Source of the DNA: a virus
Lineage: Duplodnaviria; Caudoviricetes
IMG/VR virus record: IMGVR_UViG_3300008110_000071
Span: 1 to 54,883 of that record
Reading direction: 5' to 3' (one strand)
Length of the DNA: 54,883 bases
Shown piece by piece: positions 3,880 to 41,534 of the stretch. Position 1 is the stretch's first letter. Each line of letters opens with the position of its first letter. The position numbers and the translations under genes are program-made. The notes beneath the pieces are model-generated. The model was not told the DNA's origin. It did no database searches and saw only the letters and a list, made by a program, of their open reading frames with translations.

Positions 3880-4700
3880 TATCCTACCATATCAAGTGGT
3901 GGTAAGGAATAAGTTGTCATTAAACTTTCTTCCAATTTATCTATTTCTTGTGTTGCGTCATCATATAATTGACGACCATTAAATGTTACTCCACCTGGCA
4001 TTTGAATTCCTTCAAATTTTGATAAATTTTGGCCCCATTGTTTTTTTATCAATGCAGTAGTATATTTTTTAAGCCAGATATCATCATACATTTTAGTGAA
4101 ATCATTTGGATTCAAAGCACGATAACAATCTATTACAATAAAATCATCGACTGATTGCATACCCCAATCTAGATCTACGTATAATCTATTTTGAACTTTA
4201 GTATATCTAATATCTTTGTTTCCTTCTAACATAAAATCCAAGGTCTCAAGATATGTCAAAACCATATAATAATTCATAATATCATATGAATAAAAATTAT
4301 AAAAATCATTCAAAAAAAACTGATATCTAAAACCAAACATATTATTGACAAAGGCATTAGATACTTTAAAAATACCTTGAATTCCAATGACATGATCTGG
4401 AACTGTTAGATATCCTCTACCTTCTTCAAAATTTAATGTTCTTGAATTGTCAGAATCATTTGTATCAGTTTTAGTTGTAGTAAAATTACGTTTTTTGCCG
4501 TTATCAATATCTTCTTGAGTAAGTTTGTATTTTAGATACATTCTTTCCATGCCATCAAATGCTCTATTATTAAACATCTGAATAGCATCATCAATTAGGT
4601 CTTCAATTTGATCATCGTCCACATTAATTTCAATCACTGGCTTCCCAAGTTTACGAAGACAATATTCTTTTAATTGTGTTCTACTACTTGGTTTTGCCAT
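3879..4700 (-). CDS. gp13: Neck protein
   Basis: LKEYCLRKLGKPVIEINVDDDQ, KKQWGQNLSKF.G.QMPGGVTFNG. Confidence 0.96.
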   Translation of the reverse strand: MAKPSSRTQLKEYCLRKLGKPVIEINVDDDQIEDLIDDAIQMFNNRAFDGMERMYLKYKLTQEDIDNGKKRNFTTTKTDTNDSDNSRTLNFEEGRGYLTVPDHVIGIQGIFKVSNAFVNNMFGFRYQFFLNDFYNFYSYDIMNYYMVLTYLETLDFMLEGNKDIRYTKVQNRLYVDLDWGMQSVDDFIVIDCYRALNPNDFTKMYDDIWLKKYTTALIKKQWGQNLSKFEGIQMPGGVTFNGRQLYDDATQEIDKLEESLMTTYSLPPLDMVG

Positions 4701-30546: not shown

Positions 30547-31722
30547 ATGACTAATCTATTAGAAGCCTATCAATCTATGTATGAAGATCAAGATTGGAAG
30601 GAAAGAAATTTTAGATCAATGCCAGATAAAAGTATTCCTAAGGTTGCAGATAAAGCTAGAAAGTTGCAGGCAGATATCAAGTCTCAGAAATCAAGACCAT
30701 TAGCAAGATTTCGCCCTGGAATTAGAAAAGACGTAAAGAATAAGAATAATCAGCTTAGAAATATTATACATTCACTTAGAATGAAACAAGGTGATGTAGA
30801 AGCTAGAAAAAGAGCACATGATAGTAAAATTGATCATATTAGACAAAAAGCACACGAACTAGGAGTTAGGATTCACAATCTTAATAAACCACAAAGTGTT
30901 ATTGCACCTGGACCAAAAAACTGGAATAGACCCTCAAATAAAAAGGTAAATGCATCAAATACAATCAAGAGATTTCGTAGAGAAGATATTGAGTATATTC
31001 TAGATTATCTTGTAAATGAAGGCTATGCAAACTCCTATGAAAGTGCTGCAGGAATTTGTGAGTCTATGTCTGATGCCTGGGTAAATTCAATCTTAGGTGA
31101 AGTTATTGTAGAATCTTCTAGAAGATCACAAGTTGCATCAAAGCAAGGTAGAACACCAAAGCCAGGTGCAAAGAGTGGCAAATCTAGTGCACCATTGGAT
31201 ATCAAGATGGCTGGAATGCCTGGCTCTGGTAAATCAACAATGGCAAAAAGGCTAGCCAAAAAGACTGGCGGAACTGCAACTGGATATGACGATGCACGAG
31301 AAACAATTCATGGTAATAGATCTAATCAATCTAAGTTTCCTGAAGTCCACAAACTTACAATGGATCGACTAAGAGACGCAAATAAATCTAAGCCAAGAAT
31401 TCAAGACAACACTAATGTTAATCCAAAGTTCAAACAGAGTACTGATGATAGTCTAAAGAAAGATGCTGGATTTAGATCAATTACAACAGTATCACCTAGA
31501 ACATCACAGAGGAGATCATTTGCACGAAATGCAAAGAGAGATCAGCCAGTTCCAAGATTTGTGATGAAAAGTATGGCATCACAAGAAAAAGAGTTTAGAA
31601 AGTCTAGAGAAGGTAAAGGTGCAGTTAAGACAGGTAAGGACCTGACTAAGAGATTCAGATTAAATCGTAGATCTGCAAGAGCAAGACTAGGAGTTGAAAA
31701 TCCAAAGAGAGGTCAAGCATGA
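30547..31722 (+). CDS. Basic putative internal head protein with C-terminal AAA_33/PNK-type P-loop kinase
   Basis: LLEAYQSMYE start, EYILDYLVNEGYA..ESA..I..SMS..W repeat domain, GMPGSGKST, DDAR, DNTN, RNAKR..PVPRFV. Confidence 0.65.
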   Translation: MTNLLEAYQSMYEDQDWKERNFRSMPDKSIPKVADKARKLQADIKSQKSRPLARFRPGIRKDVKNKNNQLRNIIHSLRMKQGDVEARKRAHDSKIDHIRQKAHELGVRIHNLNKPQSVIAPGPKNWNRPSNKKVNASNTIKRFRREDIEYILDYLVNEGYANSYESAAGICESMSDAWVNSILGEVIVESSRRSQVASKQGRTPKPGAKSGKSSAPLDIKMAGMPGSGKSTMAKRLAKKTGGTATGYDDARETIHGNRSNQSKFPEVHKLTMDRLRDANKSKPRIQDNTNVNPKFKQSTDDSLKKDAGFRSITTVSPRTSQRRSFARNAKRDQPVPRFVMKSMASQEKEFRKSREGKGAVKTGKDLTKRFRLNRRSARARLGVENPKRGQA

Positions 31723-32354
31723 AAACGTACTCTGAATTTTTAGTAGAGTCTGAACGTAGAATTGGAAGGGCATTGAGCCCTAGAGGGCCATCTTCAACTA
31801 GAGGGTTTATGGCTCGTAATAGAACTTATGGTGAATATGATAATACTCCTCCAACACAACAAAGAACTCAACGAAGAGCTATGCTCAGAAGGCATGGACT
31901 TCCAAAAGGATCTGCAAACTTAAAAACTCCCGAAACCAAATCCATCAAAAATGATGGAATGGAAACGAAAGTTACAACCCATAAAAACTCTGGACACTTT
32001 GCAAACGAAAGACTTCGTACTATGCAAATGTTTAAGTCACCAAAGAAAGATCAACATCAAGTTGTTAAGAGTATTACAAAACACTTAGGAAGAAACCACA
32101 GAAAACCATTTTCTGATGTTGATATCTACAATACAAACAAAGATGACTCTAAGATGACAAGTGGTAGAAAGTTTATGAAGGCAGTGAAAAATGTTCCAAA
32201 GGATGTTAGGTCTGTAGGTGGAAAATCTTTTGGTGGAGTTCCAACAGATATGAATACTGGAAGACACTCTCCAAGTCGTGAGAAGTTATATCGTGATAAA
32301 CTTAAAATGACTAGACAAGATAAAACTACTCGATATCAATTCAAAAGAGGTTAA
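31719..32354 (+). CDS. Basic putative internal head protein
   Basis: N-terminus MKTYSEFLVE resembles T4 IP capsid-targeting sequence MKTYQEFIAE. Confidence 0.6.
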   Translation: MKTYSEFLVESERRIGRALSPRGPSSTRGFMARNRTYGEYDNTPPTQQRTQRRAMLRRHGLPKGSANLKTPETKSIKNDGMETKVTTHKNSGHFANERLRTMQMFKSPKKDQHQVVKSITKHLGRNHRKPFSDVDIYNTNKDDSKMTSGRKFMKAVKNVPKDVRSVGGKSFGGVPTDMNTGRHSPSREKLYRDKLKMTRQDKTTRYQFKRG

Positions 32355-32356
32355 GC

Positions 32357-32962
32357 ATGAAAACATTTGCTCAGTTCCTAGAAGAAGCAAAGCAACATAC
32401 TCAACTTTTAGATGATGCTTGGATTCCACCTGCATCAAAGAAATTGAGAGCTGGAACAGAAAGTCCATTAAGTCTTGCAAGAAAGAAGGGAACGGATGTT
32501 AATAAAGTAAGAGCATCAGTTGGAAAATTCGCAGAACCAATCAACAATCCAAGGCATCCTGATATTGATTATAAAAAGGATGAAAAGTCAGGAACTCATA
32601 CATTCACACACAAAAAACATCCAATTCAAGTAACCTATACCCCAGGAGATAAACCAAATACATTTATTCAGAATACAACTAAAACTGGAGAAACAACTGA
32701 TAGAATTGGTGCAGGTAAAGCAATGCAGGATATTAAAAAGAAAGTATCATCTTCAGCAAGACCTGGAACTACATTAGTATCACAACCAGTAGGAGATCGT
32801 AGGGCATCATTGAATACAAGATCCCAGGGAATGAGTGAACCAAATGAAAAGGGAGTACAAGCAGGAATTACAAGAAATCGTTCACCAAAACAAAAGGCGA
32901 GAGGTGCAAAGCCTTTAGATCCAGTGAAACATACTGGGACATTTATTGATCCTAATCATTAA
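32357..32962 (+). CDS. Basic putative internal head protein
   Basis: N-terminus MKTFAQFLEEA; K/R-rich. Confidence 0.6.
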   Translation: MKTFAQFLEEAKQHTQLLDDAWIPPASKKLRAGTESPLSLARKKGTDVNKVRASVGKFAEPINNPRHPDIDYKKDEKSGTHTFTHKKHPIQVTYTPGDKPNTFIQNTTKTGETTDRIGAGKAMQDIKKKVSSSARPGTTLVSQPVGDRRASLNTRSQGMSEPNEKGVQAGITRNRSPKQKARGAKPLDPVKHTGTFIDPNH

Positions 32963-32988
32963 ATCTACAAACTCAAATAAATTATTTT

Positions 32989-33023
32989 TTCCGAGGATCT
33001 AAACGGTTCTCGGAATTTTTTTT
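32989..33023 (+). terminator. Probable terminator of + strand operon
   Basis: TTCCGAG-N13-CTCGGAA followed by T8. Confidence 0.5.
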
Positions 33024-33352
33024 GTTGAAAATTTTTTCCGAGATTATTTTGATACACTCGGTAAGACAAAGGGCGATATATGTGAATTGCTCGGAATATG
33101 TTGTGCGGGTTGGGAGGGGCATATGGGGAAACCTTGGATGGGCTTGGAGATTGGTGGAAAATTTTTGAGTTGATTGAGTATCTCTCTGGCTTTCTGGGTA
33201 CGTTATAGCTTAGGGTAGTTAGACGTTTTTCACGGGTACGGGCCGGGGCGACCCATAAGGGCCGTTTATACTGCCCCTGCCCACTGATAAGGACTGCTGA
33301 TCGATCAGGATTGCTGATCAAAGGGGGAGCCCCGGAGGGCTCCCGCTGCGGG

Positions 33353-33529
33353 TCAGTGGAACACCACAGAAGTGCAGTGGCAGCCGAAGCTCTCAAACCA
33401 CTGATCCAGCTCCTCCCACGTGGGGAAGGACACCTGCCCGCCTTCCGTGGGGGACAGCATGTAGCTGGCGCTGTAGGCCACACGGGTGACCGTGGTGTTC
33501 TGAGCGGTGACGGTGACGGCTTTAGTCAT
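33353..33529 (-). CDS. Early micro-ORF, 58 aa (absent from track)
   Basis: MTKAVTVTAQN...SFPTWEELDQWFESFG; GAGGA RBS, repeated leader, TAGGAT -10. Confidence 0.65.
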   Translation of the reverse strand: MTKAVTVTAQNTTVTRVAYSASYMLSPTEGGQVSFPTWEELDQWFESFGCHCTSVVFH

Positions 33530-33541
33530 GATCCTCAGGCA

Positions 33542-33568
33542 GTGCGGGCACCGATCGGCCCGCTTGAG
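33542..33568 (-). repeat. Repeated 5' leader hairpin, copy 1 of 3
   Basis: GTGCGGGCACCGATCGGCCCGCTTGAG also at 34171-34197 and 34519-34545. Confidence 0.95.
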
Positions 33569-33624
33569 ATAATCCTACAGGATGGGCGGGCCAGCCGTGG
33601 CTGAGCTGGCCCTAAAGTTCATAT

Positions 33625-33813
33625 TCAGTAACCTAGCCAGACCAGCCACTCCCCGGCGTCAACCCCATTGGGCCAGCCTATGGCTGAGCCATACAGGGCC
33701 AAAAACTCTTGCCCGACACCGTGGCTGATCGATTCACTGAAAGCATCCTGATAGGGGATGCAGCCCTGCTCGTTCATGCGGGCTTCTGTGGCTTCCCTAA
33801 GGGTTTCGTACAT
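33625..33813 (-). CDS. Early micro-ORF, hypothetical
   Basis: Fits cassette between hairpins; VDAGEWLVWLGY C-terminus. Confidence 0.65.
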   Translation of the reverse strand: MYETLREATEARMNEQGCIPYQDAFSESISHGVGQEFLALYGSAIGWPNGVDAGEWLVWLGY

Positions 33814-33845
33814 GGTGCTTGTGCTTGTGGGGTGTAGGTAGGAAG

Positions 33846-33876
33846 GGGGACCCCGTAGGGTCCCCGGCTGGGCTCA
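33846..33876 (-). repeat. 31-bp post-stop hairpin repeat (GGGGACCC-TACG-GGGTCCCC), copy 1 of 2
   Basis: Identical copy at 35148-35178; begins at upstream gene's TGA. Confidence 0.95.
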
Positions 33877-34158
33877 CCAGTCGCTGGGATCGTACTGATC
33901 GCAGCGCCAATCCTCACGCTCCTCATCTGTCATGGGCCGGGTGAGGCTGAGCGGGCCACATGCCCACAGTTCTACTTCCTCGCCGTGCTCGGGCTCACAA
34001 GCCCAGCTCAGAACCAACCCAGCTGGCAGATACAGCCAGCCCCGTGTGGGCTGGTTTGCTGCTGTATCTACGTACAGCACGTGAAGTATCGTCTGGAACT
34101 TAGGCGGGAGGCGCAGGTCGCCTACCGAGCAGGGAGTGAAAAGGTCAGAGCTTTGCAT
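33874..34158 (-). CDS. Early micro-ORF, hypothetical
   Basis: AAGGA RBS and repeated leader upstream. Confidence 0.7.
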   Translation of the reverse strand: MQSSDLFTPCSVGDLRLPPKFQTILHVLYVDTAANQPTRGWLYLPAGLVLSWACEPEHGEEVELWACGPLSLTRPMTDEEREDWRCDQYDPSDW

Positions 34159-34197
34159 GGTCCTTAAGCGGTGCGGGCACCGATCGGCCCGCTTGAG
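34156..34197 (-). repeat. 42-bp leader+RBS+ATG repeat
   Basis: Identical to 34504-34545. Confidence 0.95.
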
Positions 34198-34201
34198 ATT
34201 A

Positions 34202-34240
34202 AGTGTACAGCATGGTGGGGCAAGCCGTCAAGCTTGCCCC
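34202..34240 (-). promoter_or_regulatory. sigma70 promoter with -35 inside inverted repeat
   Basis: GGGGCAAGC-TTGACG-GCTTGCCCC...TACACT (18-nt spacer); second copy at 34550-34588 with TACTAT. Confidence 0.75.
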
Positions 34241-34248
34241 GGTTGGGT

Positions 34249-34506
34249 TTAGAGGTTGAACGCCAGCTCTAGGGCATTGGCATAGCCTTGTGCCGTATTC
34301 GCCAGCTGCAGCAGCGCCTTCCGTTCGGGCGACATGTAGTGTCCCCGTTCCATCTCACACCACTGTGCAACCCAGGCCCAATCGGCTTGCTGCTGCCAGC
34401 CACGGCAGGCCATAGCCTCATCACTCCACCCCCAACGGGTGTACTGCTCGACTTGCTGGGAGTCGAGCTTGCGGATGCCAGCGTAGACAAGCTCAGTCAG
34501 GGTCAT
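34249..34506 (-). CDS. Early micro-ORF, hypothetical
   Basis: AAGGA RBS and repeated leader. Confidence 0.7.
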   Translation of the reverse strand: MTLTELVYAGIRKLDSQQVEQYTRWGWSDEAMACRGWQQQADWAWVAQWCEMERGHYMSPERKALLQLANTAQGYANALELAFNL

Positions 34507-34596
34507 GGTCCTTAAGCGGTGCGGGCACCGATCGGCCCGCTTGAGTTCAATAGTAGAGGGTGAAGGGGCAAGCCGTCAAGCTTGCCCCGGCTGGCC

Positions 34597-34797
34597 TCAG
34601 GCGTCGAATAGCAGTTGGGAGCCGATCTCCAGCTCGACTGCTCGCCGATACTGAGCGAGCGCCAGCCGCTTGGCTTGCCGGTCGCCCCGGTAGCCAGCGT
34701 TACAGGCAAGACACCACCACATCTCCCACCTACCGGTAGAGGGGGGCAGCCCTTCCGGGCGATCGTAGGCGGTGTGTGTGCTGATGGTGCTGATCAT
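34597..34797 (-). CDS. Early micro-ORF, hypothetical
   Basis: Cassette position; TACACT -10 upstream. Confidence 0.55.
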   Translation of the reverse strand: MISTISTHTAYDRPEGLPPSTGRWEMWWCLACNAGYRGDRQAKRLALAQYRRAVELEIGSQLLFDA

Positions 34798-34835
34798 CGT
34801 TCTAGTGGGTTGGCTTGTGCAGTGTAGGGAGAGAT

Positions 34836-34871
34836 GGGGCCACCAGCTGGTGGCCCCGGTGGTGATCAGCC
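34836..34871. repeat. Perfect 22-bp palindrome GGGGCCACCAGCTGGTGGCCCC plus GGTGGTGATCAGCC
   Basis: Variant at 35471-35503. Confidence 0.9.
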
Positions 34872-35105
34872 AGCCTCGCCGGGCTGGAATCGGATGCTGC
34901 CATCCGCTAGCACGTCAGCCTGCCTCCCAGGCCGGCGCTGCAGCCAGGCCATGGCACCCCGTAGGGCAGCCATGCGAACCTCGGCCATGGCCTGCCAGCC
35001 GGTGAGCCGAAGGCACGAGTCGCCTCCGGCAGCCGGAACGGCGTAGTAGGTCAGCAGCTGACCCTCACGGGTGGTGTGCTGGCTGATCAGGATCGGAGAA
35101 GGCAT
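34866..35105 (-). CDS. Early micro-ORF, hypothetical
   Basis: TGcTAAGAT -10 and C/A-rich leader upstream. Confidence 0.6.
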   Translation of the reverse strand: MPSPILISQHTTREGQLLTYYAVPAAGGDSCLRLTGWQAMAEVRMAALRGAMAWLQRRPGRQADVLADGSIRFQPGEAG

Positions 35106-35175
35106 TGGTCTGGGTTGGTTTGGGACTTGAGAATCTTAGCAGGTGGTGGGGACCCCGTAGGGTCCCCGGCTGGGC

Positions 35176-35430
35176 TCAGATGCAGTTGTCAGCCAGCCAA
35201 TCCCGGATCTCGTTCGGGTAGGTGGCCCATGCCTGCAGGGCTTGTGCGAGCATGTCGCACTCTAGGTAGCCTCTGTCAAAAGCCCATAGTGTGCCGCCGT
35301 TTCCGGTGAGGGAACACCAGATAGAAAAGGTGCTCGGCTTGCGATCATCCTCGCTATCGGCCCAGCTCAGCAGCCTCTCCACGGCGTAGGTGGCCTGTTC
35401 AACGGTGAGGCGGGTCTCGGTGGTTGCCAT
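35176..35430 (-). CDS. Early micro-ORF, hypothetical
   Basis: GYLECDMLAQALQAWATYP; TACACT -10 upstream. Confidence 0.65.
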   Translation of the reverse strand: MATTETRLTVEQATYAVERLLSWADSEDDRKPSTFSIWCSLTGNGGTLWAFDRGYLECDMLAQALQAWATYPNEIRDWLADNCI

Positions 35431-35497
35431 GGTGGGTTCCGTTTGGGACTTCTACAGTGTACAGCATGGTGGGGCCAGCTTGTGGCCCCGGTGGTGA

Positions 35498-35704
35498 TCA
35501 GCCGATCAGCTCACCCAGGCGCTGGGCCATGGCCCCGCTTTGACGCCACAGGCGCTCGATTGCCTCCCGGTCACGACCGTTGGCGGGGTCTTGAAAAGCT
35601 TCCTGCAGGATGCCAAACCAGTAGGAGCTGGAATCAAAAGCCATACGGCGCAGGGCCTCGGCCTCCCAGGCGGTGAGGGTCAGGGTGACGGTTTCGGATT
35701 GCAT
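35498..35704 (-). CDS. Early micro-ORF, hypothetical
   Basis: VTLTLTAWEAEAL N-terminal strand; TTGCAA...TAGTGT promoter upstream. Confidence 0.6.
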   Translation of the reverse strand: MQSETVTLTLTAWEAEALRRMAFDSSSYWFGILQEAFQDPANGRDREAIERLWRQSGAMAQRLGELIG

Positions 35705-35870
35705 CGCTGTAGTGCGGTGTACGTAGGGAACACTAGCAGGCCGCTGCTGCAGCTTGCAAGGGGTCAGAGTGACAGCTTAGAAAGTGGCACAGCTGTGGCA
35801 GTTCTAGAACTGGCCCACTAGGGTTTAGCGTGGGCCAGTGTGCCAGCAGGCCAGCTGGCCCTGTGCCAGC

Positions 35871-36080
35871 TCAGGCCCTGGCCCTGCGACGCCTGATCTC
35901 GTCACCATACGTGCTTGCTTCATCGCTGTAGCGGCCCTCGGCGATGGGGTTCCAGCCTCGCATCGCCTGCTCGGCCTTGCGTGCATCCTGTGCACTGTAG
36001 ATCAGCTCAGCCAGGGTCATGGCCTTTGCCTTGGCTTCCCAACGGGCGAAGTCTTGTGGAGTGGCGTGGTTGGCGATCAT
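35871..36080 (-). CDS. Early micro-ORF, hypothetical
   Basis: TGcTATACT -10 upstream; EGRYSDEASTYGDEIRRR. Confidence 0.7.
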   Translation of the reverse strand: MIANHATPQDFARWEAKAKAMTLAELIYSAQDARKAEQAMRGWNPIAEGRYSDEASTYGDEIRRRRARA

Positions 36081-36268
36081 GGCCTTTGGCTGAACTGAGA
36101 TCAGTATAGCAGGTGGGCTGGCGTGGTGTGGGCCAGCTGGTGGCCAGCCCTTGGATTGTCACAATGTGAAATGTATGTACATTGTGCCCCTACGTGTGTG
36201 TGGGGGAATGTATGGTTAAGTATTACCTATTACGGTTAATAATTTGTAATACTGTTAATAATTTTATA

Positions 36269-36418
36269 TTATTGATAATAATTCTTGTCTACCAGAATAT
36301 CATTCTCCCAAACTACATTGGTAGTATTAAATATAACGCTTAATAATTCTTCAGTCAATTCAATGTAACCCATAGTGTTCAATTCTTCCACTTGTGCGTT
36401 GGTGAGAAAGGGATTCAT
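36269..36418 (-). CDS. Micro-ORF, 49 aa (absent from track)
   Basis: MNPFLTNAQVEELNTMGYIELTEELL...; promoter-like spacing upstream. Confidence 0.5.
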   Translation of the reverse strand: MNPFLTNAQVEELNTMGYIELTEELLSVIFNTTNVVWENDILVDKNYYQ

Positions 36419-36508
36419 GGGGTTGCCTTTGTTTGACCTTTATATAGTCCCATAGATCCTGGCCAGAGTCTAGTGGTCTTGTGCCAGTGGTCAAACTGGT
36501 TCTAGGAC

Positions 36509-36538
36509 TTGACTGGGGGCCGGACGGCGTGCTAGAGT
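36509..36538 (+). promoter_or_regulatory. Antisense sigma70 promoter
   Basis: TTGACT-N18-TAGAGT with extended TG; second TGcTAGGAT at 36613-36621. Confidence 0.55.
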
Positions 36539-36626
36539 GAAGGTAGACTCTATTTGTCTGTGTGACGATTTGTATACTGTCTGTAATTTGGCTCTGTTGG
36601 GGGGTGGTGCCGTGCTAGGATGTGAT

Positions 36627-36690
36627 CACAACCGAGAGAGGGCTGGGGTAAGCCTGATGATGAAATGGTCGCCACGCCCCCTGCCATAAA
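36627..36690 (+). ncRNA. Candidate small structured RNA
   Basis: Follows TGcTAGGAT; AGAGGGCTGG pairs imperfectly with CCACGCCCCCT; no ORF. Confidence 0.3.
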
Positions 36691-36709
36691 ATAGTTAATA
36701 AAAAAAGAC

Positions 36710-36736
36710 AAAAAAAGGGCTTGCTGTCAAGCCCCG
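36710..36736 (-). terminator. Terminator GGGCTTG-ACAG-CAAGCCC-T7 (contains TTGACA)
   Basis: Hairpin plus T run downstream of ORF 36749-37063. Confidence 0.75.
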
Positions 36737-36748
36737 GTGTGCCACTTG

Positions 36749-37063
36749 TCAAACTGCGCTAGGGCGATCCTGGCTCCACTGGCGCAAGCGACGGGTGCTG
36801 GCCTTGCTGTAGACACGGTTGGTGATCGGGTCGCCGTTGGCCTTGGTGGCGATATTGCGGCCTGCAGCGTCAGCAGCAGCCTGCAGTGCCTTACGGCCCA
36901 GCTTGCGTTCAGCCTCTAGGGCGTTCTCATTGGTGGCCAGGTCAAACAGCCATTGTGCACGGTGGCGGCCAACGATGTGGGGCTGACGGATGGTGATCTT
37001 GGCAACAGCCACAGCAACCACGGTGGGGATGCTGGTGCGGGTCAGGCGATCGTTGCGGGTCAT
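36749..37063 (-). CDS. Basic hypothetical protein
   Basis: Own promoter and terminator. Confidence 0.65.
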   Translation of the reverse strand: MTRNDRLTRTSIPTVVAVAVAKITIRQPHIVGRHRAQWLFDLATNENALEAERKLGRKALQAAADAAGRNIATKANGDPITNRVYSKASTRRLRQWSQDRPSAV

Positions 37064-37168
37064 TGTCTCGTGGGGTGTGTGGGGGATCTCTGCCCCCGTG
37101 ATCTAAGTATAGGGCACCGGGTAGACCCTGGCTATGGGTCAGACCCGGTTTGTTGCAAAGCTTAATCT

Positions 37169-37927
37169 TTACACTTTAGCGGTCAGAATAGCCTGGCGCT
37201 CTTTAGCGTAACCACTAAACTGTCCAGCCTTGCGACGTGCCCACACTGCTTTGCCATAGGTTGAACCTTTAGGCTGGGTTGAATGCACGAGAAGTGCAAA
37301 CGGTTTGTCACCAAAACAATGCGAATCGTCGTGATCAACCTCTAACCCAAGCGCTGCAGCTTCTTCATCGTTGTGCACAACTTTACTGTAGCGGGAGAAC
37401 ACACCAGCATCAATGTAGTGGTCAAACTTACCACCATAGCTGGCAGTAAAGTAAAAGTTGGAGGGAAGCTCCAAACCTACAAACAGTGGCAGATTCTTGC
37501 TGTAGCAGTAGAACTTAAGATCAGGGTTCAGCTTAGCTACTTCAATCCAAGCATCCAGATAGGCACCCGAGAAGAAATCACCAGACTCGTGGATTCTCAC
37601 CAGCTTGCTGTTCTTCTTGCGAGCATTCTGCAAGCTTCGATCAATTAAACCTACCAAATTGTTGGCTTGCATCGCTTCCACAACCATTTCAAGGTTGCGA
37701 GCCCGAGCATAGAAAGGGCCATCGTATTGTGCCTCGCTAGTTGCAGCAAAGCAACGGAATTGAGTCTGTGGGCCATCCTGAACTTTACGTTTGCCGTCTT
37801 CAGTAACAACAGCAAAGGACAAACAGAACAGAGCGCCAGGGCAGGTTTTACCAGCTGGCAGACTAAAGATCAGTGTGCCCTTGCCAAGCTTGGCGTTACC
37901 GTGGGAGAAGGTGAGAAGGTCGGTCAT
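37169..37927 (-). CDS. GP88-like (radical-SAM-related) protein
   Basis: GNAKL...FSLPAGKTCPGA..C...CFAA, RIHESGDFFS..YL.AW, FYCYSK. Confidence 0.8.
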   Translation of the reverse strand: MTDLLTFSHGNAKLGKGTLIFSLPAGKTCPGALFCLSFAVVTEDGKRKVQDGPQTQFRCFAATSEAQYDGPFYARARNLEMVVEAMQANNLVGLIDRSLQNARKKNSKLVRIHESGDFFSGAYLDAWIEVAKLNPDLKFYCYSKNLPLFVGLELPSNFYFTASYGGKFDHYIDAGVFSRYSKVVHNDEEAAALGLEVDHDDSHCFGDKPFALLVHSTQPKGSTYGKAVWARRKAGQFSGYAKERQAILTAKV

Positions 37928-38005
37928 TGGTTCGGGTGTTGAACTTGAGTGAATCCTAGCAGCTGGTGGGGGCTTGGGAAGCCCCCGACTGATTAGCGTT
38001 GCTTA

Positions 38006-38170
38006 TCAGTACCCGTTCAGAAACTCGTGCAGGGCTTCCTGATACTGCTCCTCGGTGTGGAAGGTCCGAGTCCCGATGGTGCAAGGGAAGGTGCGACGGG
38101 GAGCGGCAGCCTTGCTGGGCTCTTTGCCCTGCTGCTGCAGCTGCTGAACATAGGGGTTCTGGCTGGTCAC
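38006..38170 (-). CDS. Micro-ORF, 54 aa, GTG start (absent from track)
   Basis: SQNPYVQQL...FPCTIGTRTFHTEEQYQEAL; TGcTAGGAT promoter. Confidence 0.6.
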   Translation of the reverse strand: MTSQNPYVQQLQQQGKEPSKAAAPRRTFPCTIGTRTFHTEEQYQEALHEFLNGY

Positions 38171-38249
38171 GGTGTCGTTTGTGGTTGACTCTGGAATCCT
38201 AGCAGCTGGTGGGGAGCCCTGAGCCCCCCTTCGTTACAAATCGAAATAA

Positions 38250-38441
38250 TTACATCACCAGTAGCCAATCCTGGTCATTGTGTACATTAACCCAGAAGAA
38301 GTTCTTGCCATTCATAGAACGCAAGAATACTCTATCACCTTTGTGCTGTTCAATGATACAATGTGGGCAGGATTGCATTTGGTTAGCCATCCTGTTTTTA
38401 GCCTTTTTGCTGATGGGTTGAACTGAAATCATCGGAGCCAT
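38250..38441 (-). CDS. Conserved cyanophage micro-ORF
   Basis: VQPISKKAKNRMANQM...IIEQ...FLRSMNG.NFFWV...D.DW. Confidence 0.7.
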   Translation of the reverse strand: MAPMISVQPISKKAKNRMANQMQSCPHCIIEQHKGDRVFLRSMNGKNFFWVNVHNDQDWLLVM

Positions 38442-38562
38442 GATGTTAGTTTGCGGTTAGCAACACTCAGTAGCTTAGCAATAACCAGCAGTGCAATGAG
38501 TTCGGCTGTCACAATCTGTAATAATGTAGTGAAAAGGGGGAATTGCTTCCCCCTAGATCCTA

Positions 38563-38826
38563 TCACACGGTGACAGGCTTCAGTTCTTCAGTCTTGCGAG
38601 CGTCTGCAATAGTAGAACCAATGCTTACAGTCTTCAGGATCTCATCGTTAGTCATAAGATCACTCAGGAACTGAGCATATGACTCGGTAGCAGTAAAGTT
38701 ATAGGCTTTGTCAGGATTGCTGTGGTAAGTGATAATAATATCAGTGTTGTCTACAGTGATAGAGTTAATAGCACTGGACTGTTCTTTGGTGAATGAACGA
38801 TGAACAGAAGCGATTGCAGTTGCCAT
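38563..38826 (-). CDS. KTSC-like domain protein
   Basis: SSAINSI.VD...IIITYHS....Y.F...SIG pattern. Confidence 0.5.
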   Translation of the reverse strand: MATAIASVHRSFTKEQSSAINSITVDNTDIIITYHSNPDKAYNFTATESYAQFLSDLMTNDEILKTVSIGSTIADARKTEELKPVTV

Positions 38827-38853
38827 GATGTTTGTGCTTGGTGTACGGTTAAT

Positions 38854-38882
38854 AATTTACAGGATGGGGCTCAGTCTGTCAA
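38854..38882 (-). promoter_or_regulatory. sigma70 early promoter
   Basis: TTGACA-N17-TAAATT. Confidence 0.75.
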
Positions 38883-38907
38883 GCCCCTGATTGATTAGTA
38901 ATACTAA

Positions 38908-39042
38908 TCAGAACTCGATTTCGTCTAGTGTGGGTTCCGACATAGTATCATCAGACTCATCTGCTAGCATGTTGAGAATACTAAGAATCTCGTTGCCAGT
39001 TTGACCCTTACGAAGCATTGAAATTAGCAGTGCTTTAGACAT
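38908..39042 (-). CDS. Micro-ORF, 44 aa (absent from track)
   Basis: MSKALLISMLRKGQTGNEILSILNMLADESDDTMSEPTLDEIEF. Confidence 0.6.
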   Translation of the reverse strand: MSKALLISMLRKGQTGNEILSILNMLADESDDTMSEPTLDEIEF

Positions 39043-39048
39043 AATAAT

Positions 39049-39177
39049 TCAGAAGTCGATGTTAGAGTTAATAAATTGACGAAAGTTTGCTTCACTTTCA
39101 TCATCATCAGCAGCAGGAATTAGTAAATCATCCTGCCACTCAGTTTCAAGATCAACAAAGTCGTAGGTGGTTTCCAT
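39049..39177 (-). CDS. Acidic micro-ORF, 42 aa (absent from track)
   Basis: METTYDFVDLETEWQDDLLIPAADDDESEANFRQFINSNIDF. Confidence 0.6.
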   Translation of the reverse strand: METTYDFVDLETEWQDDLLIPAADDDESEANFRQFINSNIDF

Positions 39178-39186
39178 TGTTAATAA

Positions 39187-39360
39187 TCAACCTTCAAGAA
39201 GTTCAGGGTAATGATCACTAATTTCAGTGATCAGTTCTTCAGCAGTATAACCCTCAAAGCAATTCACCAGCATGTCGTATGCGTACTGTTCAAGAGTTTT
39301 CATGTCCATGCTGTCCAGAATTTGCTGGGCGTAGGCATCAATCAGATCAGAACGGTTCAT
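39187..39360 (-). CDS. Acidic micro-ORF, 57 aa (absent from track)
   Basis: MNRSDLIDAYAQQILDSMDMKTLEQYAYDML...YPELLEG. Confidence 0.7.
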   Translation of the reverse strand: MNRSDLIDAYAQQILDSMDMKTLEQYAYDMLVNCFEGYTAEELITEISDHYPELLEG

Positions 39361-39383
39361 TGGTTCAGGTGGTGAACAATAAT

Positions 39384-39412
39384 AATTTACCAGGGCTGGG
39401 GGCTGGAGTCAA
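39384..39412 (-). promoter_or_regulatory. sigma70 early promoter
   Basis: TTGACT-N17-TAAATT. Confidence 0.75.
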
Positions 39413-39424
39413 CCCCCTGATTGA

Positions 39425-39604
39425 TTAGTGTTGCTTATGGTTAATATCTAAGGCACCATATTTGTTTAGTTTGCCTGCACAAGGCTTGTTGTCATAAACT
39501 CCAAAATAATACTTGCCGATACTAATACCGAATTGTTCGTCGCCTTGATTAGCCTTGGTGTTTGCACCAATGTAGAAGAGTTTGGAATCAAGTGAGAATT
39601 TCAT
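39425..39604 (-). CDS. Micro-ORF (start revised to ATG 39604)
   Basis: Track start lies inside promoter; leader GTTCACCACCGAACCC precedes MKFSLDSK. Confidence 0.6.
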   Translation of the reverse strand: MKFSLDSKLFYIGANTKANQGDEQFGISIGKYYFGVYDNKPCAGKLNKYGALDINHKQH

Positions 39605-39626
39605 GGGTTCGGTGGTGAACGAGTTA

Positions 39627-39655
39627 AGTATGGCATGGATGGGGGCTGGAGTCAA
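39627..39655 (-). promoter_or_regulatory. sigma70 early promoter
   Basis: TTGACT-N17-CATACT. Confidence 0.7.
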
Positions 39656-39684
39656 CCCCCTGAATGATTAGCGTTGCTTATCGG

Positions 39685-39882
39685 TTAAGCTTCATTGTAA
39701 ATGATAGTGCTAATACACCAACCAAAACAATCAGAGATTGCATCAGTCAGGTATTCTTCATCATCAACTTCCCATACTTTTTGCTTTGCTTCTTCAACAA
39801 TAGCCTGTTGATAATCCACAGAAGGAAACTCATCGTCTTCCATCTCAAAATCAAACTCAATGTGAGCGACTTGGAACTGCAT
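39685..39882 (-). CDS. Acidic micro-ORF (start revised to ATG 39882)
   Basis: MQFQVAHIEFDFE...WEVDDEEYLTDAISDCFGWCI. Confidence 0.7.
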   Translation of the reverse strand: MQFQVAHIEFDFEMEDDEFPSVDYQQAIVEEAKQKVWEVDDEEYLTDAISDCFGWCISTIIYNEA

Positions 39883-39905
39883 GGGTTTGGGTGGTGAACG
39901 ATTCA

Positions 39906-39934
39906 AGTATGGCCTGAATTGGGTCAGGAGTCAA
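39906..39934 (-). promoter_or_regulatory. sigma70 early promoter
   Basis: TTGACT-N17-CATACT. Confidence 0.7.
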
Positions 39935-39955
39935 GCCCTGGAATGATAATAATCT

Positions 39956-40177
39956 CTAATCAATCATATTAGTACTGATAAGTGATTCTAATAGATTGGC
40001 ATTGATAAAGCTTTCTAGATGGGTCAGCTGTTCGCCATCCATAGAGGTTACATATTCCTCAATGATTTGTTCCATTAGTTTATAGTTATTACTATAAAGT
40101 TCTTCTGTTAATACTTCAATCATCTCATCTTGTTTCATGGATGGGCTGAAGAATTGTACCACGTCAGGGTAGTGCAT
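39956..40177 (-). CDS. Acidic micro-ORF
   Basis: Preceded by promoter at 40202-40230. Confidence 0.65.
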   Translation of the reverse strand: MHYPDVVQFFSPSMKQDEMIEVLTEELYSNNYKLMEQIIEEYVTSMDGEQLTHLESFINANLLESLISTNMID

Positions 40178-40201
40178 GTGGGGTGTCTCAGTGACATATG
40201 T

Positions 40202-40230
40202 AATATACCTGATCCTGGGCGGCCTGTCAA
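40202..40230 (-). promoter_or_regulatory. sigma70 early promoter
   Basis: TTGACA-N17-TATATT. Confidence 0.75.
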
Positions 40231-40353
40231 GGGGTCTTTGATTAGTAATGCTAATGGATGGCCTCGGAGGGATTTGGAATGCTTATATTAGTGATACTTA
40301 TCGGTGGCCTCGAAATGATTTGGAGTTCTTATGAGTTTTTTGGGCCGGGGGGC

Positions 40354-40382
40354 TTGACAATTTCGGCGGGGTGTGATATACT
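40354..40382 (+). promoter_or_regulatory. Near-consensus + strand promoter firing into non-coding DNA
   Basis: TTGACA-N17-TATACT with extended TG. Confidence 0.8.
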
Positions 40383-40554
40383 GCGGGCCAAGACCGCTGC
40401 ACCTCCGAACATTTCAGATACTTTCTCTGACATACTCGGAAACATAGGATATAAGGTTAATAATTCTAGGCATACAGGGTATAAGGTTAATAATTTCTAA
40501 CTCATACTCACTACGTATAACACACAAACATATATTTTTTATTACATTTAATAA

Positions 40555-41169
40555 TTACACTAAATCATACATACCATTCCGCAATACATCTATCCATCTA
40601 TTCAATCCATCAATAATTCTTTGATCTGTTTCCTTTGTTAGATAATAATCTTGAATATACTTTATCTTTGCTTGTACATATACTTCATGTGCTTCTTCTG
40701 GTGTTTGATAATAACCTAGTGAAACATACTTACCATTCATTTTAATGCGTGATCGAAAGAGTTTAACTTGTTTACCTTTATTAGGATGTTTAACTACTCC
40801 AATAGGATATTTTCCTCTATTTGCAGTTGATTTAATTAGTAATTTATTTAATTCATCTGATACGTATACACATTTATCTGGTCCATAGACTTTATTCCCT
40901 GGATAGATAATATCTTTATCTAATTCTAATCCCTCTGTATAATTTTGTTGATTATGCCAGGCTTTGAAGTTAGAGAATTTGTGCCATTCTGGTGCTACAG
41001 TACAACCAGCATAGGTTGGTCTAGTCATTTGGTATTCTTCAGAATAACAACGCCTGAGCATTCCATGCCAATTAGCATATTCTCTACGTACTATTATTTT
41101 TGCATTGATTTTAGAAGTCACTGTGCAGTCAACATCATTGATTCCTACACCATAAACTAATTTTGTCAT
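40555..41169 (-). CDS. HNH-like endonuclease with C-terminal AP2 domain (homing-endonuclease type)
   Basis: YGVGIND, W.GML.RCY, PTY..CTV..EW..FSNF, ELDKDI..GNKVYGPDKC, LGYY.TPEEAH..Y. Confidence 0.8.
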   Translation of the reverse strand: MTKLVYGVGINDVDCTVTSKINAKIIVRREYANWHGMLRRCYSEEYQMTRPTYAGCTVAPEWHKFSNFKAWHNQQNYTEGLELDKDIIYPGNKVYGPDKCVYVSDELNKLLIKSTANRGKYPIGVVKHPNKGKQVKLFRSRIKMNGKYVSLGYYQTPEEAHEVYVQAKIKYIQDYYLTKETDQRIIDGLNRWIDVLRNGMYDLV

Positions 41170-41180
41170 AATAATAATAA

Positions 41181-41534
41181 TCAGTGTTTGTTTTGGTTCA
41201 TTTTTTCGATTCTTCGGATGATTTCTGCTTGTTCATCCTCTCTATCTGCATCTTGTCTTCTCTTTTTCTTATAGTTCTCTACTCTATCTCTTTCTGCTTG
41301 TAGTCTTTCTGCTTGTCTTTGATTCAGTTGTTGTTGTTTCTGTTGTACATCTTCACCTAGCTTATACTCTCTTGGGCCTTGGTTTGGATTCTCTTCATTG
41401 TACTTTCTGATTGCTTCAGCACCATGGCCTCCTTGTTTCTTTATAAGATCCATGATATGCTTCTTAGAGTACAGTGGCTTTGGTTTCTTATCCTTCTTCT
41501 TTGCTTCTTCTAGGAACTGTTTAAACGTAATCAT
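41181..41534 (-). CDS. Putative internal head protein (start revised to ATG 41534)
   Basis: MITFKQFLEEA N-terminus; late promoter ATAAATA at 41559-41565. Confidence 0.6.
   Translation of the reverse strand: MITFKQFLEEAKKKDKKPKPLYSKKHIMDLIKKQGGHGAEAIRKYNEENPNQGPREYKLGEDVQQKQQQLNQRQAERLQAERDRVENYKKKRRQDADREDEQAEIIRRIEKMNQNKH

Follow-up and report, generated by a model that had tools for sequence, protein, structure and literature searches.

A likely PeSL-type array of small-gene cassettes, half of it a GC-rich island, in a T4-like cyanomyovirus lineage

Introduction

Promoter-early/stem-loop composites (PeSLs) of T4-type phages join sigma-70-like early promoters to stem-loops that 'generally involve GGGG...CCCC' (Arbiol et al. 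2010, PMC2839356; Comeau et al. 2014, PMC4122927). The stem-loop may lie between the promoter boxes or overlap the -35 or the -10 box, the -35 overlap being one of five subclasses, and the composites cluster in hyperplastic regions, where the ORFans that follow them vary from one close relative to the next (PMC2839356). They flank insertions, deletions and replacements between close relatives, likewise in the pairs T4/PST and KVP40/nt-1 (PMC4122927), and work on RB49/phi1 showed that the stem-loop attenuates transcription, that the composite drives expression and that mini-circles arise by recombination between neighbouring composites (PMC2839356). Here we describe a row of small genes that is likely to be a hyperplastic cassette array of this PeSL type in a T4-like cyanomyovirus. 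It spans positions 33,286-40,302 of the IMG/VR virus record IMGVR_UViG_3300008110_000071, a linear record of 54,883 bp with a completeness estimate of 30%, which as a whole is called the window throughout.

Among open-licence papers and preprints, as far as their accessible text goes, PeSLs of cyanophages are discussed in PMC4503421 only; there the cyanophage S-PM2 has an isolated promoter with two stem-loops, for which a PeSL mechanism was judged unlikely. No description of GC-rich mini-gene islands in cyanomyoviruses was found in the accessible text of the same body of papers and preprints, PMC7029224 included. The morons of lambdoid phages are likewise autonomous single-gene expression units added to a phage genome; in the available part of PMC2839356 they have no conserved flanking connectors and are thought to enter via illegitimate recombination, whereas in the array described here shared connectors mark the exchange points.

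Results

A one-directional row of small genes and interchangeable connectors

The array holds 21 open reading frames (ORFs; g1 to g21, Table 1) of 42-252 amino acids (aa), 19 of them shorter than 100 aa and all of them on the minus strand (33353-40138). It is bounded by an HNH endonuclease gene (40555-41169) and by a convergent plus-strand operon (30547-32962), and it closes a leftward, minus-strand block of non-structural genes. An earlier note on this DNA had seen about 20 micro-ORFs, most of them laid out as stop, hairpin, promoter, leader and ATG, and we find this layout in most spacers: read along the minus strand, the usual order is a stop codon, about 8 nt, a G-run/C-run hairpin, 5-11 nt, a TAnnnT box, an A/C-rich leader of 20-45 nt and the ATG. 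A GGG..CCC hairpin is present in 15 of the 21 upstream spacers, the connector hairpins being of the form GGGG..CCCC, often with TTGAC in the loop. No leader has a Shine-Dalgarno sequence; weak use of Shine-Dalgarno sequences is common in cyanobacteria. Before g2, g3, g4, g7, g18 and g19 the TTGAC of the loop stands 17-18 nt ahead of the -10 box, so that the putative -35 box would lie in the loop and the 3' arm of the hairpin would serve as promoter spacer. In most GC-rich connectors there is just the TAnnnT box, at a constant position behind the hairpin, with nothing that matches a -35 box, and any promoter in them is putative. Between g4, g5 and g6 the spacers measure 9 and 6 nt and hold no connector, so we treat g5 and g6 as one unit with g4. 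A search of 32500-41500 against Rfam, on both strands, gave no match at E <= 1.

The six repeated parts that the earlier note had named were all recovered, in different combinations. Leader copies at 33527-33570, 34156-34199 and 34504-34547 are 89-91% alike; hairpin A is identical at 33846-33865 and 35148-35167, within a 31-nt repeat that finishes on a stop codon; hairpin B is identical at 34217-34240 and 34565-34588; and hairpin C (34836-34857 and 35471-35489) is 87% alike over 38 nt. A -10 block recurs at 34202 and 35456, and the block GGGGGCTGGAGTCAACCCCC at 39398 and 39641. That repeats end at start and stop codons is also borne out, with the repeat families D3 and D4 starting with the CAT of three ATGs and D7 finishing with the TCA of two stops. 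The parts are mixed: hairpin A precedes two different sets of -10 box, leader and ORF; hairpin B precedes two different -10 blocks and one common leader; the -10 block at 34202 and 35456 comes after two different hairpins; and the shared leader comes after three hairpins and precedes three unrelated ORFs.

Excess over chance and folding of the hairpins

Eighteen GGG..CCC hairpins lie in 33000-40600, against 4.0 +/- 2.0 expected from 100 composition-preserving local shuffles (largest value 9), and 5 in the other 47 kb, which places 18 of the window's 23 within 7.6 kb. Sigma-70-like sites number 23 against 7.0 +/- 2.7 in shuffles, and minus-strand sites of the form TTGAC, 17-18 nt, TAnnnT stand upstream of g1, g2, g3, g4, g7, g18 and g19. 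In the complete relative introduced below, about 8 of about 14 distinct motif sites fall in 5 kb. When 14 intergenic segments were folded, the minimum-energy structure contained the hairpin in 12, and for 8 of the 14 no more than 5 of 200 shuffles folded as well. Among 13 sequences of the hairpin-A type (8 of them distinct), 4 of 8 pairs have changes on both sides and 96.9% of cells pair, a level reached by none of 500 shuffles; by these compensatory changes and a pairing unmatched by shuffles, the hairpins are under structural selection. Clear terminators made of a hairpin plus a T run occur only after g11 and after g7, upstream of g8 (Table 1).

Turnover of cassettes with breakpoints at connector parts

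Relatives of the array were fetched as 80 loci by a search with g10, and all 80 therefore carry g10. The other ORFs have relatives in very different numbers of these loci: g8 in 56, g6 in 26, g7 in 25, g11 in 21, g4 in 16, g13 in 9, g2 and g3 in 8 each, g12 in 7, g19 in 5, g1, g5 and g20 in 4 each, g9 in 3, g15 and g17 in 2 each, g21 in 1, and g14, g16 and g18 in none. Nine relatives show gain, loss, replacement, duplication and reordering of cassettes. The most informative is locus L009, which belongs to G001, a complete genome of 172,253 bp with terminal repeats whose identity to the window is 98% immediately to the left of the array. Of the 21 ORFs, 14 are retained in L009; g2, g9 and g14 are missing, g4, g18 and g21 are replaced by ORFs of 92, 65 and 97 aa, respectively, and g16 is replaced by two other ORFs, each behind a copy of the g16 connector. 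L006 is built as L009, with g13 replaced as well and g21 kept. In L008, g11 is directly followed by g19, after which come three GC-rich ORFs of another kind; in L005 and L011 the whole of g12-g21 gives way to one unrelated cassette, and in L005 the order of g3 and g1 is swapped. L098 lacks g10, g15-g19 and g21, has g9, g13 and g14, and carries the g5-g6 pair twice. In the IMG/VR contigs L098 and L099 about 660 nt of other sequence (locus 3338-4002) stand where the GP88 gene (g10) is expected; since these contigs lack it, even the 'anchor' g10 is a replaceable cassette.

Identity between the window and L009 is a mosaic, with the 98% left of the array followed by 96% in g19-g20, 92% in g17, 90% in g15, 84% in g10-g13, 87% in g5-g8 and 82% from the HNH gene to g1. 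In seven relatives, 50 of 60 ends of homology (ends of blastn blocks of at least 150 nt) fall in spacers or at most 6 nt from an ORF end, positions that make up 34% of the array (binomial p 3.5e-15). Base-by-base alignments at g14, g16 and g21 show identity running through the leader and the ATG, gone by the next codon, and picking up again at the stop codon and terminal hairpin. At g4, homology to L009 stops at 39393, between the connector hairpin and the -10 box, and at the right anchor of the array homology to all eight relatives compared picks up again (33319-33345). L009 lacks 35431-35701, so that the window's g14 leader is joined to the g15 ORF at a common ATG, and its g17 keeps its own leader behind a hairpin-A variant where the window has hairpin C. 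In the fetched loci taken together, hairpin A (with at most two changes) is joined to at least 8 different downstream combinations of promoter, leader and ORF, and the shared leader precedes 5 different ORFs; an exact search of IMG/VR with 22 nt of this leader found it in the two closest relatives only.

Assembled contigs from other samples (assemblies, not single molecules; four runs were compared in all) hold joints that skip parts of the array. The joint 37950>38194 deletes g9, whose cassette is flanked by 21-nt direct repeats (37951, 38194), both sides of the joint sharing these 21 nt; 39671>39927 deletes g2, 39189>39354 affects g4, 33874>34597 deletes g18 and g19 from stop codon to stop codon, and 33572>33846 deletes g20. 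These joints are what recombination between connectors would leave. A backward joint, 35072>33844, was not counted as a rearrangement, hairpin A being identical at 33846 and 35148. The earlier note had held that gene content and order should vary among relatives with breakpoints at the repeats, and this comparison bears it out.

The ORFs as genes

The ratio of nonsynonymous to synonymous substitution (dN/dS) was calculated for g7, g8, g11, g13, g15, g17, g19, g20 and g21 against one to three relatives each, and is 0.05-0.33 in 17 of the 18 pairs that yielded a value and 0.58 in a g21 pair, which shows purifying selection on these ORFs. In the GC-rich ORFs the called frame has the order GC3 > GC1 > GC2 (GC content by codon position). 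Five of ten ORFs searched as one batch (g2, g4, g7, g8 and g9) fall into PHROG families of unknown function, and none of the ten from g12 to g21 does; Pfam recognised GP88 in g10 and DUF7326 in g4, families likewise without a known function, and family searches with g11 and g13-g21 gave nothing above the cut-off. The predicted structure of g11 is all-helical (pLDDT 77) and had no match in the PDB at E <= 0.001. Searched by tblastn against phage isolates, g11 had one match, in Synechococcus phage Sf-FR1 (48%), and g19 none. A wide protein search with g19 gave 15 clusters of 62-100% identity, unnamed or 'hypothetical' and on short contigs, which says nothing about where g19 came from, and a locus search with this single protein found 3 loci only. 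As the earlier note had it, the cargo may serve in host takeover or anti-defence.

Further parts and motifs

The connectors hold two parts that the earlier note had not described. A palindrome, ATHAGYNNYNCTDATC, has 11 matches at 8 distinct sites, all within 33286-40302, against 0.11 expected, an excess that is flattered because the motif was derived from its own copies. Six of the sites lie just before hairpins of the low-GC half, at g1 (twice), g3, g4, g7 and g10, and two form a tandem pair at the array end. The copies are 16-19 nt long; the best is palindromic without a mismatch over 19 nt and takes in the TGA stop upstream. Among relatives the distance from palindrome to hairpin is fixed, and 2-4 tandem copies stand in a conserved block that closes the array. 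The palindrome looks like a candidate operator for a dimeric protein. The other part is in the shared leader, which folds a 6-7 bp hairpin of its own (33542-33565, 34171-34194, 34519-34542) near the predicted 5' end of the mRNA; its stem has compensating changes in L006 and L008 and its loop is altered in L007. We would guess that this hairpin in the 5' untranslated region (5'-UTR) may act in mRNA stability or as a regulatory site.

Two more motifs were noticed in the spacers. AATTATTAAC occurs in 5 copies against 0.46 expected, all on the minus strand and within 36.2-40.5 kb; its sites (36235-36263, 38848-38857, 40456-40495) belong to AT-rich spacers, around g12 and ahead of g7 and g1, and the motif could mark a regulator site or a further class of promoter. 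CTGGCACA has 8 copies in the window against 1.4 expected, 3 of them in the array (35839-35869, 36480-36487); it often lies within GTGCCAG..CTGGCAC palindromes and recurs, within the GC-rich half, in its long spacers and, among relatives, in the spacers ahead of g13 homologues. The mini-gene g12 with its AT-rich flanks sits inside the GC-rich island, is 96% conserved in L009, L006 and L098, and comes after the island's only strong hairpin-plus-T-run terminator.

Low-GC genes of the HNH type border cassette arrays, at either edge, in the window (40555-41169), in two relatives and in phage S-SRM01 (L008 12957-13547, L005 11627-12004, L085 1620-2057), and homing-driven co-conversion of their flanks may add to the turnover.

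Table 1. Parts of the array and their positions in the window
Feature	Position	Strand	Remarks
Long spacer, HNH gene to g1	40139-40554	-	TTGACA, 17 nt, TATATT at 40230-40202; palindrome copies 40240-40255, 40287-40302
g1	39956-40138	-	60 aa; GC 31%; relatives in 4/80 loci
Connector upstream of g2	39883-39955	-	imperfect hairpin with TTGACT, 17 nt, CATACT, leader
g2	39685-39882	-	65 aa; phrog_2460; missing in L009, L006; RNA-library contig joint 39671>39927
Connector upstream of g3	39605-39684	-	palindrome 39666-39682; hairpin 39641-39660 (TTGACT in loop), CATACT, leader
g3	39425-39604	-	59 aa
Connector upstream of g4	39361-39424	-	hairpin 39398-39417 (as at 39641), TAAATT, leader
g4	39187-39360	-	57 aa; DUF7326; phrog_1352; unrelated 92-aa ORF instead in L009, L006
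g5	39049-39177	-	42 aa; joined to g4 without connector
g6	38908-39042	-	44 aa; g5-g6 pair (38908-39177) twice in L098
Connector upstream of g7	38827-38907	-	palindrome 38893-38909 including g6 stop; hairpin 38866-38887 (TTGACA), TAAATT, leader
g7	38563-38826	-	87 aa; phrog_4357; dN/dS 0.11-0.13
Spacer upstream of g8	38442-38562	-	hairpin plus T run 38537-38553, terminator-like
g8	38250-38441	-	63 aa; phrog_1653; widest-spread small ORF, 56/80 loci
g9 cassette	38006-38249	-	connector 38171-38249 (hairpin 38211-38229, TAGGAT) and g9
g9	38006-38170	-	54 aa; GC 61%; phrog_649; missing in L009; contig joint 37950>38194
Connector upstream of g10	37928-38005	-	palindrome 37991-38007; hairpin 37968-37986, TAGGAT, leader
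g10	37169-37927	-	252 aa; Pfam GP88 (E 5.8e-44); not in L098
g11	36749-37063	-	104 aa; GC 63%; spacer 37064-37168; conserved left anchor of GC-rich variable segment
Low-GC inset	36081-36748	-	terminator 36716-36735; promoter-like site 36494-36467; g12; AT-rich spacer
g12	36269-36418	-	49 aa; GC 32%; AT-rich spacer 36081-36268 with two AATTATTAAC copies
g13	35871-36080	-	69 aa; GC 62%; family also in S-2L, S-SRM01, 123 viral-contig stretches
g14 cassette	35431-35870	-	spacer 35705-35870; g14 35498-35704 (68 aa); connector 35431-35497
Connector in g14 cassette	35431-35497	-	hairpin 35471-35489, TACACT
g15	35176-35430	-	84 aa; GC 60%; dN/dS 0.13-0.21
g16 cassette	34866-35175	-	connector 35106-35175 (hairpin A 35148-35167, TAAGAT); g16 34866-35105 (79 aa, GC 68%)
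g17 cassette	34597-34865	-	connector 34798-34865 (hairpin C 34836-34857, TACACT); g17 34597-34797 (66 aa)
g18 cassette	34249-34596	-	connector 34507-34596; g18 34249-34506 (85 aa); 65-aa ORF instead in L009, L006
g18 connector	34507-34596	-	hairpin B 34565-34588 with TTGACG, TACTAT, leader with 5'-UTR hairpin
g19 cassette	33874-34248	-	connector 34159-34248 (hairpin B 34217-34240, TACACT, g18-type leader); g19 33874-34158 (94 aa)
g20 cassette	33625-33873	-	connector 33814-33873 (hairpin A 33846-33865); g20 33625-33813 (62 aa)
g21 cassette	33353-33624	-	connector 33530-33624; g21 33353-33529 (58 aa); 97-aa ORF instead in L009
g21 connector	33530-33624	-	hairpin 33588-33612, TAGGAT, leader with 5'-UTR hairpin as in g18/g19
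Conserved right anchor, array end	33286-33352	-	hairpin 33325-33344; tandem palindromes 33286-33301, 33303-33318
Palindrome sites	33286-33318 (two), 37991-38007, 38893-38909, 39423-39438, 39666-39682, 40240-40255, 40287-40302		ATHAGYNNYNCTDATC

A GC-rich island and the g13 family

Composition divides the array in two. GC3 is 0.12-0.28 in the structural genes of the window, 0.19-0.46 in the right-arm non-structural genes including the HNH gene, 0.31-0.52 in g1-g8 and 0.49 in g10, and reaches 0.66-0.83 in g9, g11 and g13-g21 (57-68% GC overall), with a step from 36% to 57-63% GC at 33 kb. Such islands recur: in 58 of the 80 loci centred on g10, a 400-nt stretch has a GC content of 55% or more, in most cases a short way downstream of g10, and in 17 of 21 loci the g11 homologue stays at 60-69% GC, also where aa identity has dropped to 43-55%, within loci of 36-45% GC. 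Because the GC-richness persists among such distant homologues, recent import not yet ameliorated is an insufficient explanation for g11, and the island is a property of the lineage.

A search for distant DNA matches to 33300-36150 gave a single match, of 189 nt, in S-2L. The g13 family is found in this GC-rich siphovirus (71% aa identity; gene about 70% GC in a locus of 70% GC), in the freshwater myovirus S-SRM01 (63% aa identity; 46% GC) and in 123 viral-contig stretches. Among the 82 g13 loci scored, the flanks reach 55% GC or more in 14 and stay under 45% in 56, and g13 homologues average 14 points GC-richer than the rest of their own locus. In low-GC contexts g13 is nearly always framed by connectors of hairpin, TAnnnT and leader, of many sequence types; in GC-rich contexts it stands in tight operons without connectors. 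Given its presence in both S-2L and S-SRM01 and this context-dependent framing, at least one cassette family crosses phage morphotypes, with the connectors belonging to the myoviruses. A scan of prokaryote genomes with a g13 alignment gave 6 loci, none in a cyanobacterial genome; an origin of g13 in a host was considered and is not supported, the three real relatives being short contigs of metagenome-assembled genomes or a contig that is also in IMG/VR as viral.

The small-gene cluster of S-SRM01 (MW015081.1, 91.8-93.1 kb) holds its g13 homologue beside an HNH endonuclease gene, and its cassettes likewise run from a stop through a GGGG..CCCC hairpin, TACACT or TACATT and a leader without Shine-Dalgarno sequence to an ATG. 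In contrast to the GC-rich half here, those cassettes are 41-46% GC, near the surrounding DNA; all are annotated as hypothetical proteins.

The virus and where it occurs

Family searches with ten larger ORFs of the window found T4-type families, among them baseplate wedge proteins (phrog_438 and phrog_219), an RNA ligase (phrog_562; RNA ligase A) and a UvsW-like helicase (phrog_16). A baseplate wedge protein matched 534 phage records by tblastn, all below 60% identity and the best at about 42%; most are myoviruses of Synechococcus or Prochlorococcus, and the nearest isolates are cyanomyoviruses. The complete relative G001 encodes a psbA-type reaction-centre protein. Because of the T4-type genes, the distance to isolates and the psbA of G001, the virus is assigned to a distinct lineage of 'photosynthetic' T4-like cyanomyoviruses. 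A pelagimyophage identity, considered for the very low GC (compare the accessible part of PMC7029224), was rejected on the psbA of the complete relative. In the structural part (1-30300), GC3 is 0.12-0.18 for the baseplate genes and two giant ORFs (2098 and 2680 aa), an unusually large contrast with a presumably GC-rich host in a lineage whose complete relative has psbA. A near-identity DNA search of 33000-40600 against phage isolates gave no match, and a tRNA scan found none. Of the array's sampled words, 76-96% are found in each of 15 runs from 13 studies (possible source samples excluded), labelled freshwater, lake water, 'fungus', crustacean and once marine; by these labels the lineage is widespread and mainly freshwater.

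Discussion

The earlier note had drawn an analogy with the promoter/stem-loop cassettes of T4-type phages, and both anatomy and turnover match PeSL arrays, as far as these are described in the portions available. The genome is of T4 type, dense rows of small ORFans stand in a hyperplastic region with a G-run/C-run stem-loop and, in some connectors, a predicted sigma-70-type promoter ahead of them, the composites mark the borders of indels and replacements that set close relatives apart, and no dedicated recombinase was found. The array also departs from the published cases. They come from phages of enterobacteria and vibrios, whereas the host group here is cyanobacterial; the leaders here are A/C-rich and without Shine-Dalgarno sequences; where the published composites have an AT-rich upstream region, a defined palindrome of 16-19 nt takes its place in the low-GC half and nothing does in the GC-rich half; one leader type has its own 5'-UTR hairpin; and the genome is about 30-40% GC, against 57-68% for half of its array's cargo and connectors. 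We still file the array as a PeSL variant because the Shine-Dalgarno sequence and the AT-rich part are descriptive and not defining features. Cassette swapping at connectors is already known as the T4-type mechanism; new here are the lasting GC island, one cassette family common with the siphovirus S-2L, and the palindrome and 5'-UTR hairpin as extra parts. The earlier note had likewise not remarked that all genes share the minus strand or that half of the array is a GC island.

We therefore picture the PeSL-type array as follows. Small genes, singly or in short groups, probably form transcription units of their own. Every connector would carry a predicted host-type sigma-70 promoter with its -35 box in the hairpin loop and its spacer in the 3' arm, and the same hairpin would close the upstream gene before the A/C-rich leader, lacking a Shine-Dalgarno sequence, reaches the ATG. 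Since the connectors come in a few interchangeable versions, patches of homology of 20-100 nt would flank unrelated ORFs on both sides, and the phage's own homologous recombination could act on such patches inside a single genome or between phages that infect the same cell. The outcome would be whole, expression-ready genes deleted, inserted, replaced, duplicated or reordered with their neighbours undisturbed. Promoter and terminator activity and early timing are suggested by the anatomy. That exchange is homologous rather than site-specific, and runs through general phage recombination, we infer because a tyrosine recombinase (PF00589) was found neither in the window nor in the complete 172-kb relative, in a search whose controls were positive in 14 of 14 genomes. 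The earlier reading as a plug-in array stands as far as modular shuffling goes, given the turnover among relatives with breakpoints at connectors.

Several observations weigh against this account. Mini-circles and promoter and terminator activity were shown in RB49/phi1, whereas for the array here promoters, transcript ends and termination are predictions from sequence. The hairpins mostly have no T runs, and a scan for T-run terminators gave 9 where 7.4 were expected, which is no enrichment; in several GC-rich connectors a -35 box cannot be recognised. RNA-library contigs span 25 of the 30 bins but may derive from DNA, and so are not counted as evidence of transcription. As to exchange, homology that ends at ORF borders is also expected from any replacement mechanism if only intact genes survive. 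Ten of the 60 ends lie inside ORFs, five of them 9-19 nt from the g11 stop and one at a locus edge, and the 60 are not independent, since L006 and L009 have many in common. No circular or excised form was seen, though the sole raw-read run gave just 4 reads. Between the window and L006 the connectors are 68-83% identical and the ORFs 70-81% at the nucleotide level; with connectors no more alike than ORFs, there is no signal of ongoing homogenisation of connectors.

Part of this bears on a different explanation, in which the repeats are regulatory signals only and turnover comes from gene conversion started by HNH endonucleases or from illegitimate recombination filtered by selection. An HNH gene adjoins the array, HNH-like genes stand at its far end in L008 and L005 and beside the cassettes of S-SRM01, and the connectors are no more conserved between genomes than the ORFs. 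Yet the joint 37950>38194 shares 21 nt on both sides, that is, a direct repeat; a single hairpin or leader is found with many neighbours, so that crossovers inside connectors are needed; and the variable ORFs lie 1-7 kb away from the HNH genes. We regard this explanation as unlikely, though it is the strongest of the competitors. Mobile elements of the REP (repetitive extragenic palindromic) or MITE (miniature inverted-repeat transposable element) kind, spreading through the spacers while genes stay put, would account for identical palindromic units of 20-24 nt at several places. The units are, however, built into promoters, with the -10 box 17-18 nt from TTGAC and the hairpin following stop codons at 8 nt, entire ORFs change from one relative to another around units that keep their position, and no transposase or RAYT-type gene appeared in family searches of the 21 array ORFs and ten larger ones, most other ORFs of the window being unsearched; such an origin seems highly improbable.

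Integrons are defined by an IntI-type tyrosine recombinase and by promoterless cassettes ending in attC sites, and an integron-like system, in which the hairpins would be attC-type sites and a site-specific recombinase would move the cassettes, does fit in part: single-gene cassettes that can be exchanged stand in a row of one direction, the repeats between them form hairpins and stop at gene borders, and the hairpin structure is conserved with compensatory changes. Against this, no PF00589 integrase was found in the window or in the complete relative, the hairpins are perfect and just 17-25 nt long, unlike attC, each cassette has its own promoter-like site, and breakpoints fall at several places of the connector (hairpin, -10 box or leader, ATG, stop) rather than at a single crossover point, which leaves this idea a shade less credible even than mobile repeats. 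The jump in GC at 33 kb could, in principle, betray an assembly chimera or contamination in the GC-rich half. The same junctions are, however, also seen in contigs of independent origin (L006, L008, L098 and, out of a complete genome that has terminal repeats, L009), the array words recur in the 15 runs described above, connector parts such as the 21-nt block at 35131, 37951 and 38194 are common to GC-rich and low-GC cassettes, and most related loci have a window of at least 55% GC at the same place downstream of the GP88 gene; the chance of an artefact is negligible.

The PeSL-type reading leaves the composition of the array to be explained. The GC-rich half (g9, g11 and g13-g21) would seem to belong to a gene pool of host-like composition, and possible causes of its lasting GC-richness are exchange with a GC-rich pool, host-like codon selection and biased repair at a recombination hot spot. 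We speculate, with some way to go before we would call it probable, that it is a standing compartment, long kept GC-rich, and in effect a market of expression-ready mini-genes among unrelated cyanophage families. Mini-genes would circulate between GC-rich siphoviruses such as S-2L and low-GC myoviruses, and in the latter would plug into standard connectors, much like an integron without an integrase. Their host-like codons might allow translation on host tRNAs in the first minutes, ahead of the phage's tRNAs for AT-rich codons and of its low-GC programme; cyanomyoviruses have been argued, in the accessible part of PMC3152331, to offset their low GC with tRNAs. Alternatively, GC-biased repair at a recombination hot spot could uphold the GC-richness.

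What emerges is a dense PeSL-type array, likely as that assignment is, in a widespread cyanophage lineage, whose natural variants can be read directly from metagenomes. It offers a natural system for watching phages trade small early genes, and a catalogue of ready-made predicted connector parts (promoter, hairpin and leader) for cyanobacterial hosts. It also poses a puzzle of composition, in that GC3 is about 0.75 in cassettes and about 0.15 in the structural genes next to them, which bears on how low-GC cyanomyoviruses express their genes in high-GC hosts.

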